A stretch of 50,033 bases of DNA from Deltaproteobacteria bacterium. GTDB lineage: Bacteria; SAR324; NAC60-12. Within the stretch, counting starts at the first letter, position 1; each line of letters begins with the position of its first letter. A model generated the notes under the pieces. It made no database searches, was not told the DNA's origin, and saw nothing but the letters and a program-made list of their open reading frames with translations. The DNA lies in the NCBI GenBank assembly GCA_038150265.1, contig JAYOTF010000025.1, forward strand, positions 1 to 50,033, in the 5' to 3' direction. Shown here one piece after another: positions 1,997 to 50,033 of this stretch. Made by a program: the position numbers and the translations under genes.

Positions 1997-3031
1997 TTGA
2001 ATCGTTTTGCAAATTTCTTTGCCCAGGACATGGCCATTGACCTGGGTACGGCGAACACGCTGGTGTACATGAAAGGACGGGGCATTGTCATCCGGGAGCC
2101 CTCGGTGGTGGCAGTGCAACAGGACAGCCGCGGCAACTACAAGGTCCTGGCCGTAGGTGAGGAAGCGAAGCAGATGCTCGGGCGCACCCCCGGAAGCATC
2201 ACCGCCATCCGCCCCATGAAGGATGGGGTGATCAGCGACTTCGACATCACCCAGGAAATGCTGCGCTACTTCATCCGGCAGTGCCAGCGCAAGTTTTCCT
2301 TTTTCCGCTTCAAGCCCCGAATCATCATTGCGGTCCCGTCTGGCATCACTCAGGTCGAACGCCGAGCCGTCAAGGAAGCCGCCGAGTCGGCAGGCGCCCG
2401 AGAGGTGTTCCTCATTGAAGAGCCCATGGCAGCCGCGGTGGGAGCCGGACTCCCCGTCACAGAAGCCAGCGGCAGCATGATTGTGGACATCGGTGGCGGC
2501 ACCACGGAAGTCGCCGTGATTTCCCTCGCAGGGATTGTCTACAGCGATTCCGCCCGGGTCGGCGGAGACAAGATGGATGAGACGATCATTCAGTTTGTCA
2601 AACAGAAGTACAACCTCCTCATCGGGGAACGCACGGCTGAAGAGATCAAGATCAACATCGGCTCCGCGTTCATCCAGGGCGAACCCCGGACCCACGAAGT
2701 CCGGGGCCGTGACCTGGTGACCGGCATCCCCAAGACCCTGATCCTCAGCGAAAAGGAAGTCCTCGACGCCCTGTCTGACGTCTGCGACCAGATCGTCGGC
2801 ACCGTCCGGAATGCGCTCGAATCAACGCCTCCGGAACTGGCTGCCGACATCGTCGACCGCGGCATTGTCCTCGCCGGTGGAGGCTCCTTGCTTTCCGGGC
2901 TCGATGTCCTTCTGCGCCATCAGGTCGGCCTCCCCGTCTTCCATGCAGAAGACCCACTCACCGCTGTCGCTGTCGGAACCGGAAAGGTCCTCGACGAGCT
3001 GGACCTGCTTTCCACGATTGAACTCGACTGA
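1997..3031 (+). CDS. mreB: Rod shape-determining actin MreB
   Basis: [30 protein letters not shown] and DIGGGTTE motifs. TTG start at 1997 after a purine-rich SD (AGGAAAGAGG). No mreC/mreD follows. Confidence 0.97.
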
Positions 3032-3067
3032 ACGGTCCCTGATCCGCGTCTCCTCAGGGAAGCGCGG

Positions 3068-4441
3068 TCAGCCCCGCCCCAATTCCTCTTCCAGCATCAG
3101 CGAGTTCAAGCACGCGTACCCCGCGCTCACGCCCCCTTCATCAACCGTTGCTCCTTTGGTCCGGACCAGCGTTCCAGCAAACTCACTGCGTAACACCGAG
3201 GTGCCTTCTGCCAGGCAGGTGCCATAAAAGCCGTACTCACTGACACACGACCGCGTTTCCGCCTGCCGTTCCACCACCAGGGTCGCCGTGTGCGGTTGCG
3301 GATGCAGGCGCTCCATGAGGATGTACGAACGCGTATCCTCTGAACTCAGTGCCCGGAGCTTCTCTGGCAAGGCTGCACCAAAAAAGTTGTTGCCACCGCC
3401 CTCGCGCTGCGGCTTGAGGACAAACTGTTCCGGGTGCTGCAACGCGACCTCCCGGACGCCTTGCCACTCGCCATCCCACTGAATTTCATCATCAAGCGCA
3501 TAGAGTCCGGCAAAGGTCGACTGCACCGCCTCCACGCCTTCCGGAAGAAACCGGGACAGCACTTCCGGACGCCCAAGCACCTGCTGCACCTTCTTCATCC
3601 CAGCCAGCTGCATCGCCAGGCTCGGGCACTGAATCGACGATGACGCCTCAAGGCGCTCTCGCCCCACTCGGGAGGCTTCGGACGCCAAATCCTGTGGGGA
3701 ATACCCGGCGCGGTAGTAGGTGACCGCCGCCACCTGATCGCCCAGCCAGAGGTGCCCTCCGCGGAGGGTTCCTTCGGAAGCAATCTCCTCCAGCGTCCGG
3801 CGAAGCGTGGGCACCCCATGCTTTTGCAGCAGCTGCTCCTCCAGTCCCCGCTGGTCAAAGCGGTTCCCCTCATTGGGCTGCACCACCATCAGCACCACGC
3901 CTTCCGGATGATCGTACTGGCGAACGCCTTCTGCCAGGGCAGCGGCCATTTCCTCCAACGGGTGGTTCCGAACCAGGCGAACCAGCGCCGCAGGGTCGTG
4001 CCGGAGCAGCAGCTGATGCAGCTCATGAACACGTCCCGCCAAAAACGGGAAGCTTGCCGAGATGGTATTCAATTCCACCTGCCGAGCCTGAAGCCGTCCC
4101 GAAGCGCCGGGAACGAGGAAGAAGTCGTTGCGCTGCAGCAGCAGGTGCTTCGGCTGAACCGGACGCTCCGGTAGCCACGACAGGAGCAGACGCAGGTACG
4201 GATCCGTCTGGGCCGAGGGCTCCAGGTGCTCCCGGAGAAACGCCTCGTCTGCCGCAACCCCCACCATCAGCTGGTGAAAGGGGTGGGTCAGGGCCTCCAG
4301 TTCCGTCAGCCAGTCTTCGCTGATGGGCGCCGGTGTCAGGGCAAACGGGGCATGAGTCAGCACCCCATCCGGCCGCATCCGCAACACCCCATGCAGCGCC
4401 GCCCAGTCCAATGCTTCTTCAAGCAGTTCCTTACGAATCAT
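3068..4441 (-). CDS. Glutathione synthetase, eukaryote-type
   Basis: HAPFAL.P, QVELNTIS, YYRAGYSP, QLAGMKKVQQ, FVLKPQREGGGNN, YILMERL and LVRTK..EGGV.AG motifs of the GSS/GSH2 family; 457 aa. Confidence 0.9.
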   Translation of the reverse strand: MIRKELLEEALDWAALHGVLRMRPDGVLTHAPFALTPAPISEDWLTELEALTHPFHQLMVGVAADEAFLREHLEPSAQTDPYLRLLLSWLPERPVQPKHLLLQRNDFFLVPGASGRLQARQVELNTISASFPFLAGRVHELHQLLLRHDPAALVRLVRNHPLEEMAAALAEGVRQYDHPEGVVLMVVQPNEGNRFDQRGLEEQLLQKHGVPTLRRTLEEIASEGTLRGGHLWLGDQVAAVTYYRAGYSPQDLASEASRVGRERLEASSSIQCPSLAMQLAGMKKVQQVLGRPEVLSRFLPEGVEAVQSTFAGLYALDDEIQWDGEWQGVREVALQHPEQFVLKPQREGGGNNFFGAALPEKLRALSSEDTRSYILMERLHPQPHTATLVVERQAETRSCVSEYGFYGTCLAEGTSVLRSEFAGTLVRTKGATVDEGGVSAGYACLNSLMLEEELGRG

Positions 4442-49158: not shown

Positions 49159-49318
49159 CTGCTCTCCTTCTCAAAGTCGTGGGGATTCCCCTGGTCGGGT
49201 CAGGGCTCTTTCACTGTAACGGCTTTGATCGAACGCTCCAGCCGTTTTCTTCGTGAGCCTGCGCGTGGGGTGTGCTAGAGTTTCGATTGCACCCGAACCT
49301 CAACCCGACCTGAGACTC

Positions 49319-50033
49319 ATGAGTACCGGCTTTTTCACCAATCCCATCTACCTGGAACACGACACCGGCGAGCATCCGGAAAATGCCGGACGGCTCCGCT
49401 CCATTCAGTCCCGCCTGCAAGGATCGGGGCTGCTCGACCACCTGGAGCCTCGCTCCGGACGCAAGGCGGGCATTCATGAGGTCAACCTGCTCCACACCCG
49501 TCAGCACATCACTCAGGTCGAAGAAGCCTCGGCCACCGGTGTCAACACCCTGGGGTCGCCCGACTGCATCGTCTCCGATCACACCTACGAAGCGGCGCTT
49601 CATGCAGTAGGTGCAGCGCTGGACGCCGTGGAGGAAGTGGCCAGCCGTCGACTCGATAACGCCTTCTGTGCTGTTCGGCCTCCGGGGCACCACGCCGAAC
49701 AGGCGGAAGCAATGGGGTTCTGCTTCTTCAACAACATCGCCCTGGCCGCCGAGTTCCTGATCCGCGAAATGGGCTTTCAGCGCATCGCCATTGTCGATTT
49801 CGACGTCCACCACGGAAACGGCACCCAGCACCTCTTTGAAGAACGCAGCGACGTCTTCTTCATCAGCACCCACCAGCATCCCCGAACCTGCTACCCAGGC
49901 ACCGGATTCGACTCCGAACGGGGACGTGGGCTCGGCACCGGCTACACCCTCAACGTCCCACTCCTTCCCGGGACCCAGGATGAGGAGGAAGATGGCCGAG
50001 TGGTCGAGGATCTTGAAGATGTGCTTGGCCCGT
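49319..50033 (+). CDS. Histone deacetylase-family (Zn-dependent) amidohydrolase, 3'-incomplete
   Basis: Manual translation from ATG 49319: HPE...RL, RPPGHHA, GFCFFNN, DFDVHHGNGTQ, YPGTG, NVPL; similarity appears to stop near 49985. Confidence 0.93.
   Translation, partial: MSTGFFTNPIYLEHDTGEHPENAGRLRSIQSRLQGSGLLDHLEPRSGRKAGIHEVNLLHTRQHITQVEEASATGVNTLGSPDCIVSDHTYEAALHAVGAALDAVEEVASRRLDNAFCAVRPPGHHAEQAEAMGFCFFNNIALAAEFLIREMGFQRIAIVDFDVHHGNGTQHLFEERSDVFFISTHQHPRTCYPGTGFDSERGRGLGTGYTLNVPLLPGTQDEEEDGRVVEDLEDVLGP
49979..50032 (-). other. Fragment of a hemolysin III/PAQR-family membrane protein gene (probable chimeric join)
   Basis: Minus strand reads RAKHIFKILDHSAIFLLI, matching the family LDH..I.LLI motif, but the expected AGTYTP continuation is missing. 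Confidence 0.6.

Follow-up and report, generated by a model that had tools for sequence, protein, structure and literature searches.

Why does a single six-letter palindrome, TCCGGA, recur so often along this stretch of DNA? We analyzed the whole stretch of 50,033 bases (hereafter, the window), for which a preliminary description had proposed that TCCGGA behaves like HIP1, the highly iterated palindrome of cyanobacteria, and is generated or retained either by an orphan methyltransferase with biased repair or as a DNA uptake or organization signal. The window contained 150 exact copies, the first at 2805 and the last at 49454. In contrast, dinucleotide-preserving shuffles of the window (n = 100) held a mean of 19.1 copies (sd 4.2, maximum 30), and 0/100 reached 150. 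Mean density was 3.0 per kb against a base-composition expectation of ~0.33 per kb, in line with the ~0.3 per kb estimated beforehand; the original hand counts (20 copies in 3160–7506, and 14 in 12955–14930) were exact. The features of the window were as follows.

2805..49459, unstranded: array of 150 dispersed TCCGGA copies, 134 in called ORFs and 16 in non-coding DNA or at gene boundaries
47099..47110, unstranded: two abutting TCCGGA, 6 bp from center to center (site and distance lists)
13284..13296, unstranded: two TCCGGA 7 bp apart (site and distance lists)
30902..30938, unstranded: two TCCGGA 31 bp apart (three helical turns), in a favored in-register spacing (distance list)
21539..21637, unstranded: three in-register TCCGGA with spacings of 42 bp (four turns) and 51 bp (five turns) (distance list)
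48844..48891, unstranded: two in-register TCCGGA 42 bp apart (four turns) (distance list)
1..2804, unstranded: TCCGGA-free stretch, GC 54.5%, not significant genome-wide

The whole genome (G000; 87 contigs, longest seen 198,678 bp, 97.8% complete) showed the same abundance, with 9,711 copies in 3,393,712 bases (2.9 per kb), and TCCGGA ranked first by count among all 4,096 hexamers. The proposed HIP1-like excess was thus confirmed at both scales. The unit was the hexamer with varied flanks, as first suggested, since no flanking position carried more than 0.08 bit of information. Words of the same build were not enriched likewise: genomic observed/expected (O/E) ratios were 2.26 for CCCGGA and TCCGGG and 0.67 for ACCGGT, the three comparisons named at the outset, and 0.68 for GCCGGC. 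Copies were spread uniformly. Counts in 5-kb windows had a mean of 14.5 and a variance of 16.5, gap lengths were exponential, the per-gene use of permitted positions did not differ between genes (chi2/df 1.00), and the retron-methylase locus held 9 copies versus 10.6 expected. A site-free stretch like the 2.8 kb that open the window lies within chance for this genome; 14 gaps of at least 2.5 kb were observed against 7.7 expected from the exponential gap distribution. The lowest-density contigs (C61 and C63) were considered as foreign DNA, and this was rejected; their genes were ordinary (surface, BamA-like, sensor-kinase) and gave no foreign sign.

The excess of TCCGGA resides in the DNA and not in the proteins. 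Using our own ORF-plus-codon-model gene calls rather than standard gene finder output, we found the word in all three frames: as TCC-GGA (2035 copies in the genome, 35 in the window), as xTC-CGG-A (2339 and 32) and as xxT-CCG-GAx (4233 and 67), with the remaining 16 window copies non-coding or at boundaries. The preliminary description had noted the Pro-Glu/Asp and X-Arg readings; both occurred, and TCC-GGA was added to them. Shuffles of synonymous codons that kept each protein and its codon usage gave O/E of 3.9, 3.2 and 5.2 in the three frames and 4.2 overall, so that the excess held under codon-preserving shuffles. Non-coding DNA (466 kb) contained 1,111 copies (2.38 per kb), 7.7 times the 144 expected from base composition. 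Because the word exceeded synonymous shuffles in every frame and was 7.7-fold enriched outside genes, its excess is not due to coding. TCCGGA occupied 8,607 of the 20,932 positions that the proteins permit (41%), with up to 82% in some contexts; the corresponding figure in the window was 134/308 (43.5%). Peptides permissive for the word were themselves in ~1.6-fold excess.

The spacing between copies followed the turn of the double helix. Across the genome, TCCGGA spacings peaked at 9.6+10.5k, a period of 10.5 bp with an amplitude of 0.20–0.30 that could be followed out to ~300–500 bp. Spacings of 11–17 bp stood at 0.26 of expectation, a four-fold depletion. Spacings up to 10 bp were present in the window, and 0/96 pairs within 200 bp fell at 11–17 bp. 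A Rayleigh test over 912 hexamer classes gave a value of 51.4 for TCCGGA, 11.7 and 8.9 for the next two classes (both overlapping words) and at most 6.1 for the rest. Phasing was also sought in half-sites, other CCGG, 12 other palindromes and 10 dinucleotide or short-word features, and none was phased; nor was any dinucleotide class (WW, SS, CG, GC, TA and others) phased relative to TCCGGA sites. Only the full word carries the 10.5-bp register, which is also not a protein effect. The permitted positions alone had a register power of just 2.5, and a model with 460 amino-acid contexts yielded an amplitude of 0.04 versus 0.21 observed, leaving a power of 17.2 in the observed/expected ratio. The phase was equal (offset 9.0–9.8) in same-frame pairs, in other-frame pairs and in pairs with a non-coding member. 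An RNA hairpin was rejected as the cause of the 11–17 bp hole; no depletion was seen at 9 bp, and a period lasting 300 bp cannot arise from a hairpin rule. Literature searches returned no description of the phenomenon. A word present in all frames and in non-coding DNA, with a 10.5-bp register, agrees with the 'organization signal' among the alternatives first raised.

Relatives of the organism differed sharply in their treatment of TCCGGA. At least six genera of the family showed enrichment, others were neutral, and sister lineages were depleted 10–100-fold (for example, 15–31 copies versus 1,435–1,728 copies of the control word). The word is the BspEI/Kpn2I/AccIII restriction site, and the depletion fits the earlier expectation that the site is avoided in hosts carrying the cognate nuclease. 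That is, sister lineages show classical restriction-site avoidance, whereas the sign is opposite in G000 and at least six family genera. Searches for CCGG-type nucleases (PF07832, PF09015) gave no match, but the controls were silent too, so this result carries little weight. Relatives at 43% GC were enriched just as strongly (O/E 8.7), and 31% of all CCGG there lay inside TCCGGA. Turnover among orthologs, which had been put forward as a check, was compared between G000 and its congener G002 over 321 genes at 82% nucleotide identity. Retention of the word by frame was 0.49, 0.64 and 0.59, against 0.30, 0.37 and 0.24 predicted from the same codons outside sites, and thus about twice that of the same codons elsewhere. 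Positions used in G000 had a probability of 0.57 of being used in G002, compared with 0.21 for those unused in G000. Strain differences were sought with contigs from four public runs against window positions 15001–35000; among the 40 listed of 311, one (15720) lay within TCCGGA versus 0.74 expected, too few to weigh.

The register also varied among relatives. The sample from G002 had the same phase as G000. In a sample from G021 (genus g11, 43% GC) the Rayleigh value was 28.8 and the amplitude 0.86, with 26 pairs at 20–21 bp versus ~2.8 expected; spacings peaked at 21, 31 and 42 bp, and the troughs were near-empty. All 14 of the g11 genomes with at least 10 pairs had more pairs in the 29–33 bp window than in the 35–39 bp window (significant in 11). 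In contrast, genus g19 had the opposite, half-turn register in 3/3 genomes, with 29–33 / 35–39 bp ratios of 0.06–0.18. The G001 sample carried 2.5 copies per kb but had a Rayleigh value of only 3.1, and genera g31–g32 of family f7 were 2.5–6.2-fold enriched with 88 vs 72 pairs in the two test windows. Enrichment can therefore come with little register, and the forces acting on abundance and on spacing may be separate.

We also scanned viral contigs for TTCCGGAA-N13-TTCCGGAA, which returned 115 stretches, and 80/115 were examined. A few viral contigs (including L222, L232, L235 and L229) held 1.2–2 TCCGGA per kb (O/E 5–11). They had only weak protein-level similarity to host samples, and no host link, phage-borne methylase or reader was found in them.

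Among known systems, HIP1 (GCGATCGC) is hyper-abundant in all frames and in intergenic DNA, and is conserved between relatives above controls (PMC5861425; PMC4390886). TCCGGA resembles it as a short, GC-rich, lineage-specific palindrome that is the top word of its genome, occurs in all frames and between genes, and is conserved above controls. It differs in having six letters rather than eight, in its phylum, in reaching 2.9 per kb, and in that no cognate methylase tracks it. A further HIP feature is the concentration of one-letter deviants at the outer letters (Elhai 2015, PMC4390886), whereas one-letter variants of TCCGGA showed no outer bias (O/E 1.4–2.3 for outer letters, 0.5–2.95 for inner). 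The periodicity reported for HIP1 is 18–94 kb (Xu et al. 2018, PMC5861425), unlike the 10.5-bp, genus-dependent register seen here; the word 'helical' is absent from that article, and no base-pair-scale test was found in the parts of it at hand. Closest in sequence is the alternate HIP rCCGGy of Oscillatoria PCC 10802, a degenerate word (GCCGGC, GCCGGT, ACCGGC) in an 8-letter context with the m5C methylase DmtD (Elhai 2015, PMC4390886). Both words are CCGG-centered, over-represented in one lineage and under-represented in relatives; TCCGGA has T and A as flanks, RCCGGY words were not enriched, and no C5 methylase was found in G000. TCCGGA itself is absent from the main text of PMC4390886. The closest known working mode for an integer-turn register is the reading of hemimethylated GATC pairs by SeqA in E. 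coli. The preference for integer-turn pairs was found in G000 and G021 and reversed in g19, whose half-turn spacing is not explained by same-face reading; the word is also a different one, and neither SeqA (PF03925) nor MutH (PF02976) was found in the genome, with E. coli positive in both controls. A Chi-type hotspot was rejected because TCCGGA is its own reverse complement, which makes strand orientation impossible. A dispersed repeat of the REP/MITE type was rejected as well, given flanks of at most 0.08 bit per position and unrelated spacers in the 26 close pairs of G021.

Could the excess be a by-product of codon usage, dipeptides or CCGG sub-words? CCG, CGG, TCC and GGA are common codons, and the genomic O/E fell from 8.7 under base composition to 7.6, 3.95, 2.39 and just 1.22 under Markov models of order 1 to 4. 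The preliminary description had expected an O/E near 1, after control for sub-words, if its proposal was wrong, and the order-4 value nearly reached that level. This ratio is not a valid null, because TCCGGA itself supplies 54% of TCCGG and 24% of CCGG in the genome. The by-product explanation was refuted by the shuffles (O/E 4.2 with proteins and codon usage kept, 7.7 in non-coding DNA), the amino-acid-context model, the phase of non-coding pairs, the 43% GC relatives and a register confined to the full word, and we give it practically no credence. An orphan methyltransferase is another candidate cause. According to the Elhai-type HIP model, such an enzyme marks TCCGGA or its CCGG core, methylation-directed repair turns near-sites into sites, and the excess is a by-product; possibly, a methyl-reading protein adds the spacing rule. 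In cyanobacteria every alternate HIP is accompanied by its cognate methylase, the rCCGGy case among them (PMC4390886). Contig C51 of G000 carries a conserved, stand-alone SPPY amino-methylase-like gene with no nuclease gene recognized beside it, the 10–100-fold depletion in sisters makes it plausible that enzymes targeting TCCGGA circulate in the phylum, and raised retention together with uniform binomial usage is equally compatible with selection and with a strong directional drive by repair or conversion. However, searches of the G000 contigs found no C5 methylase (PF00145), Vsr (PF03852), MutH (PF02976) or N6_Mtase (PF02384), and neither of the two SPPY DNA amino-methylase-like genes of the genome tracked enrichment across 72 genomes. 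Methylase A, at 2844–3617 of contig C45 in G000, was found at full length in just two of the three genomes of the genus, G000 and G001, with a 45-residue fragment in G002. Methylase B, the gene on C51 (full length in L035, 2951–5143), is a weak D12 match apart from which no Dam-type gene was found; it was present in the neutral genus g2 (5/6) and in the depleted G017, was found in 0/21 genomes of families f3–f7, ten of them enriched, and had an in-frame stop in 6/10 matches in g11. A motif screen of 2,622 ORFs returned these two and three other matches, which from their motif patterns we take to be RNA or protein methylases. The SPPY motif suggests N4-methylcytosine, which does not deaminate to thymine, so that T:G repair would not be needed. 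One-off variants also lacked the outer-letter concentration, and a repair bias alone does not predict the helical register. Overall, the HIP1-like behavior and the organization signal of the earlier interpretation stood, whereas its methyltransferase with biased repair gained no support from the gene content, and we regard a methylation-linked drive as unlikely.

TCCGGA might instead be a self-DNA tag for uptake or recombination, spread by transformation like DUS and USS and as proposed for HIP1. DUS (Neisseria) and USS (Pasteurellaceae) are lineage-specific, even, present at about one or more per kb, and form dialects between related lineages; TCCGGA, likewise lineage-specific, is distributed evenly at roughly ten times its density in foreign DNA. 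Known uptake sequences are 9–12 letters long, non-palindromic and strand-biased, whereas TCCGGA is palindromic, has six letters and carries almost no information in its flanks. We know of no helical register between uptake sequences, and a tag does not predict the 10.5-bp register, the 11–17 bp hole or the reversal of register between sister genera. For HIP1, a connection with methylation-dependent transformation was recently described, and a role in DNA uptake was put forward (PMC13756078; 10.1101/2024.09.10.611283). ComEC was present in G000, but it was also present in 19/19 good-quality genomes of the family, enriched or not, and so does not discriminate. On balance an uptake tag is improbable. 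Intrinsic mechanics offer another route to phasing, in which TCCGGA is anisotropically flexible or bent and selection on curvature or supercoiling phases the copies with no specific reader. The period equals the B-DNA helical repeat, favored and forbidden angles both exist, and integer versus half-integer spacings could mean adding versus cancelling bends. Against this, no dinucleotide class was phased relative to TCCGGA, the near-identical words TCCGGB, CCCGGG, GCCGGC and ACCGGT were neither enriched nor phased, and an 8-fold excess, neutrality or 100-fold depletion in close relatives is left without a reason. We consider mechanics alone a long shot.

We tentatively propose that TCCGGA is a lineage-specific highly iterated palindrome whose cause may well be an abundant, sequence-specific DNA-binding protein or complex of two-fold symmetry, for which it would be a putative docking word. 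Both this protein and its role, which could be chromosome-organizing or linked to replication or repair, are what we infer from the patterns above. The putative reader would dock on TCCGGA and contact or exclude its neighbors along the helix. Copies at permitted helical angles would then be favored and those at forbidden angles removed, either through repair coupled to binding or through weak selection acting on thousands of sites. Reader geometry would set the register, at integer turns in this genus and g11 and at half-integer turns in g19. Family searches for candidate readers found neither SeqA nor the histone fold (PF00808), and no reader protein was identified by them. A single conserved reader is hard to square with opposite registers, whether these separate related genera or, inside one genus, G000 from G001, and six letters is short for a specific protein. 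A more speculative version, which we hold to be doubtful, is a new kind of bacterial chromatin. In it, an abundant protein would read TCCGGA chromosome-wide in helically registered arrays, with integer and half-turn variants in sister lineages; synonymous sites and some amino-acid choices would be rewritten, and the same word would be a restriction target in neighboring lineages.

To our knowledge, no function of highly iterated palindromes has gained acceptance in some thirty years, and most known cases come from cyanobacteria. TCCGGA constitutes a second, independent system of the HIP type, in another phylum, and it offers three handles that are lacking for HIP1 in the literature examined. 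A sharp, base-pair-scale helical register implies a physical reading of the double helix; among close relatives the word ranges from enriched through neutral to strongly avoided; and related genera share word and period with opposite registers. Together, these handles make the comparative identification of writer and reader a well-posed problem. With 41% of permitted positions used and permissive peptides in ~1.6-fold excess, the system also indicates that a constraint at the DNA level can reshape coding sequence.

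The preliminary description had taken TCCGGA, a six-letter palindrome, as the repeated unit of this DNA, and its local counts (20 and 14) were exact on recount. The window held 150 exact copies, compared to 19.1 ± 4.2 in dinucleotide-preserving shuffles, none of 100 of which reached 150. In the whole source genome, G000 (87 contigs, 3,393,712 bases, 97.8% complete; the window is contig C25), we counted 9,711 copies (2.86 per kb). TCCGGA was its top hexamer, almost twice as common as CCGGAG and CCGGAA, the hexamers ranking next, which are its own overlapping neighbors. The observed/expected ratio (O/E) was 8.7 under base composition and 7.6, 3.95, 2.39 and 1.22 under models of order 1, 2, 3 and 4; the last value is low because the word dominates its own sub-words. 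TCCGGA supplied 54% of TCCGG and 24% of CCGG, where base frequencies predict ~19% and 4%. Its one-letter variants had O/E values of just 0.5–2.95, and their outer letters lacked the excess that is a feature of HIP1, the highly iterated palindrome of cyanobacteria. Information in the flanking bases did not exceed 0.08 bit per position; T was mildly favored before the word and A after it. These near-uninformative flanks, together with the weak variants, bear out the hexamer as the unit. The related palindromes ACCGGT, GCCGGC and CCCGGG were not enriched in G000 (O/E 0.67, 0.68 and 0.67).

A second strong DNA-level bias was also seen. TA-containing words were extremely scarce across G000, with CTAG-bearing palindromes at O/E 0.03–0.06 and ATA, TTA, CTA and GTA each at 0–2% of their codon families.

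Codon usage is excluded as the cause of the TCCGGA excess. Genes were represented by 2,622 open reading frames (ORFs) from home-made ORF-plus-codon-model calls, covering 86% of the genome. Within them the word was read as TCC-GGA at 2,035 sites, and at 2,339 and 4,233 sites as xTC-CGG-A and xxT-CCG-GAx, the two readings originally claimed. Synonymous-codon shuffles within each gene, which preserve proteins and codon usage, predicted 524, 723 and 820 copies, respectively, leaving O/E at 3.9, 3.2 and 5.2. Codon-order shuffles predicted 1,271 copies in total, indicating that peptides permissive for TCCGGA are in ~1.6-fold excess. DNA outside ORFs (466 kb) contained 1,111 copies (2.38 per kb) versus 144 by base composition. 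Where the encoded amino acids allow the word (permitted positions), it was present at 8,607 of 20,932 positions (41%) in G000 and at 134 of 308 in the window; use reached 77–82% in some contexts, e.g. Val/Phe/Ile-Arg-Thr.

Copies were spread uniformly. Windows of 5 kb (n = 619, G000) had a mean of 14.5 copies and a variance of 16.5, and a single one had four or fewer. Gaps between copies were exponential (32 of at least 2 kb versus 32.0 expected); thus, the lack of sites in the window's first 2.8 kb is unremarkable. Per-gene use was binomial (chi2/df 1.00, 1,148 genes) and showed no relation to GC3, and intergenic density was 2.0–3.0 per kb for every gene orientation. Use was reduced over the initial 90 nt of ORFs, whose called starts may extend upstream of the true starts. 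Three genes of the window are recorded here for their own sake.

1595–3031 (+): MreB ORF, MreB/Mbl domain at residues 144–472; the ~140 residues in front either extend the protein N-terminally or reflect an ORF called too long
3068–4441 (−): eukaryote-type glutathione synthetase in a bacterial genome (PF03917 plus PF03199, E 4e-88)
15378–19985 (−): 1,535-aa ORF with carboxyltransferase (ACCA/Carboxyl_trans), biotin carboxylase and biotinyl-carrier domains, a fused acyl-CoA carboxylase

Site turnover was followed in G002, a genome of the same genus that runs collinear to the window (82% identity). We compared 321 genes (351 kb), in which third positions were 54% identical within conserved four-fold-type codons. 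The chance of TCCGGA in G002 was 0.57 where G000 uses the position and 0.21 where it is permitted but unused. Retention by frame was 0.49, 0.64 and 0.59, where the retention of identical codons elsewhere predicts 0.30, 0.37 and 0.24, and codons were more stable inside than outside the word (CTC 0.76/0.52, GTC 0.86/0.56, T-ending 0.66/0.48). This shows that the sites are kept by an active maintaining force, with which selection and directional drive are both compatible.

Relatives were surveyed as samples of 0.19–0.79 Mb, with whole genomes reached through pattern counts alone (45 genomes in the family, 72 in the class); kin are not independent. The control word was AGGCCT, TCCGGA reversed, which is itself palindromic, so that the ratios are approximate.

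TCCGGA/AGGCCT ratio by genus within the family
Own genus, three genomes: 3.9–5.9
g11 (same family): 6–32 in 14 of 18 genomes; exceptions G037 (3.9) and G025, G033, G034 (~1.6), all four 51–59% complete
g19 (same family): 14–30 (3 of 3 genomes)
g4: 3.0–8.4; g6: 4.5–4.7
g2 (9 of 9 genomes), g5, g8, g9: ~1

The sample of G021, a g11 genome (599 kb, 43% GC), gave an O/E of 8.7, with TCCGGA holding 31% of CCGG; enrichment is therefore not GC-dependent. The class survey revealed further enrichment in family f4 (357 copies versus 10 of the control word) and in genera g30–g32 of family f7 (2.5–8.2-fold). Strong depletion was found in f7 genera g33 and g35–g38 (15–267 copies versus 1,435–1,882), in families f5 and f6, and in f2 genera g14 and g16. 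In sister lineages of the same class (G074, G076–G080, G063, G064, G015, G017, G020) the word was depleted 5–100-fold relative to its reverse, e.g. 15 versus 1,435, indicating that it is hoarded or purged within one phylum. Separately, uncultured viral contigs (L222, L232, L235, L229, L199, L225) carried 1.2–2 copies per kb (O/E 5–11); their protein similarity to the bacterial samples was weak, and they are possibly phages sharing the host word. Public runs with sequence near-identical to G000 were labeled as estuary and aquatic metagenomes.

Distances between pairs of copies in G000 were periodic (10.5 bp), peaking at ~9, 19, 31, 41–42, 52, 63, 72, 84 and 93 bp, and left a deep hole at 11–17 bp (3–12 pairs per distance versus 27.8 expected). 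The amplitude fell from 0.33 at 8–60 bp to 0.07 at 301–500 bp, and the register was gone past 500 bp. In the window there were no pairs at 11–17 bp, and 43 pairs were in register versus 24 out of it. Permitted positions alone were aperiodic (power 2.5) and the used/permitted pair ratio was periodic (power 17.7). A model with its own usage for each of 460 amino-acid contexts gave an amplitude of 0.04 versus 0.21 observed, and after this correction the power was still 17.2. The phase was common to pairs in the same frame, pairs in different frames and the 730 pairs that include a non-coding copy (offsets 9.0–9.8, amplitudes 0.17–0.26). Of the 912 hexamer classes that had sufficient pairs, TCCGGA reached a Rayleigh value of 51.4, followed by two words overlapping it (11.7 and 8.9); the remainder were at most 6.1, as by chance. 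Relative to TCCGGA sites no phasing was seen for half-sites, for CCGG in other contexts, for 12 further palindromes or for ten features based on dinucleotides or short words. The register is thus word-specific, unique among the 912 words, independent of translation, and has favored and forbidden angles.

Register by lineage (samples; Rayleigh values for distances of 18–80 bp)
G002, 395 kb: Rayleigh 6.4, offset 9.9, phase as in G000
G001, genus of G000: weak, Rayleigh 3.1, offset 6.2
G021 (g11): integer-turn and far stronger, Rayleigh 28.8, amplitude 0.86, offset 10.2
G028 (g11): Rayleigh 4.0, in agreement with G021
G051 (g19), 793 kb: period unchanged, offset 5.1–5.6 (half-integer turns), Rayleigh 20.9

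The G021 sample had 9 and 17 pairs at 20 and 21 bp versus 1.4 expected per distance, with near-empty troughs. For G051 the power after the context model was 12.0, and observed/expected was 0.00–0.08 at 31–33 bp. Whole-genome two-copy pattern counts in all family genomes confirmed these lineage differences. The ratio of pairs at 29–33 bp to pairs at 35–39 bp was 1.43 in G000, 1.02 in G002 and 0.48 in G001; 1.0–2.6 in g4; 0.06–0.18 in g19 (3 of 3 genomes); and, for the 14 genomes of g11 that had 10 or more pairs, 1.3–11.8 (each >1; p < 0.001 in 11). Genera g31–g32 of f7 had no clear register (88 versus 72 pairs).

Because the 10.5-bp register is word-specific, unique, independent of translation and has favored and forbidden angles, there must be something that recognizes all six letters in duplex DNA and feels its neighbors. 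As the most likely cause we tentatively favor a DNA-binding protein or complex that is sequence-specific and has two-fold symmetry. It would read all of TCCGGA on the double helix and sense neighboring copies, which would yield permitted and forbidden helical angles. One speculative candidate reader is a type II topoisomerase that wraps DNA and cuts T/CCGG/A with a 4-base stagger. SeqA is described as reading GATC on the same face of DNA (PMC2691817). Matches to SeqA, MutH, histone-fold, C5 methylase, Vsr and N6_Mtase families were absent from the 97.8%-complete assembly of G000.

The orphan methyltransferase suggested earlier drew no support from gene content, and a methylation-linked drive, unlikely in our view as the source of the abundance, leaves the register unexplained. 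Elhai 2015 (PMC4390886) describes HIP1, alternate palindromes including rCCGGy, and a methylase-repair ratchet; TCCGGA is absent from its main text. The PF01555 search of G000 returned two genes, methylases A and B.

C45:1438–4562 (L001 35–3159, outside the window): retron-type reverse transcriptase of 469 aa (St85/Ec67-like by NCBIfam, below cut-off), then methylase A, a DNA amino-methylase (258 aa, TSPPY motif; stop/start overlapping), then a 311-aa ORF with no family
C51:2–1387: methylase B, cut by the contig end in G000
L035 2951–5143: methylase B of G002, full length, 730 aa

The reverse transcriptase with methylase A looks like a candidate retron-methylase defense module. Methylase A was full length in G000 and G001 only (71% identity), and its locus had 9 copies of TCCGGA versus 10.6 expected. 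Methylase B (ITSPPY after motif I) is a stand-alone, conserved protein resembling DNA methylases and is surrounded by housekeeping genes; its Arg/Glu/Asp-rich N-terminal region of ~350 aa is built of RPRREDRPRYED-type repeats, and the nearest solved structures, by weak matches, were N4-cytosine DNA methylases. It occurred in 28 of 35 f1 and 14 of 15 f2 genomes, including neutral g2 and depleted G017, and in none of 21 genomes of f3–f7, among them the lineages of f4 and f7 in which the word is enriched. Of the 10 matches in g11, 6 contained an in-frame stop, usually TGA; decay and recoding are possible reasons. A motif screen of the 2,622 ORFs gave only three further matches, presumably RNA or protein methylases by their motif patterns.

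Uptake tagging fits less well and is quite improbable, with ComEC found in all 19 family genomes of good quality, enriched or not; for HIP1, a DNA-uptake role is proposed by Rodriguez-Cruz et al. 2026 (PMC13756078). Pure DNA mechanics likewise fits less well and is still more doubtful. Xu et al. 2018 (PMC5861425) report HIP1 conservation and a periodicity of 18–94 kb, and the word "helical" is absent from that paper. No account of the phenomenon was found in the literature on TCCGGA, highly iterated palindromes and helical periodicity, with supplements outside the scope. In G001 and f7 the register is weak, which suggests that the abundance of TCCGGA and its spacing may have separate causes.
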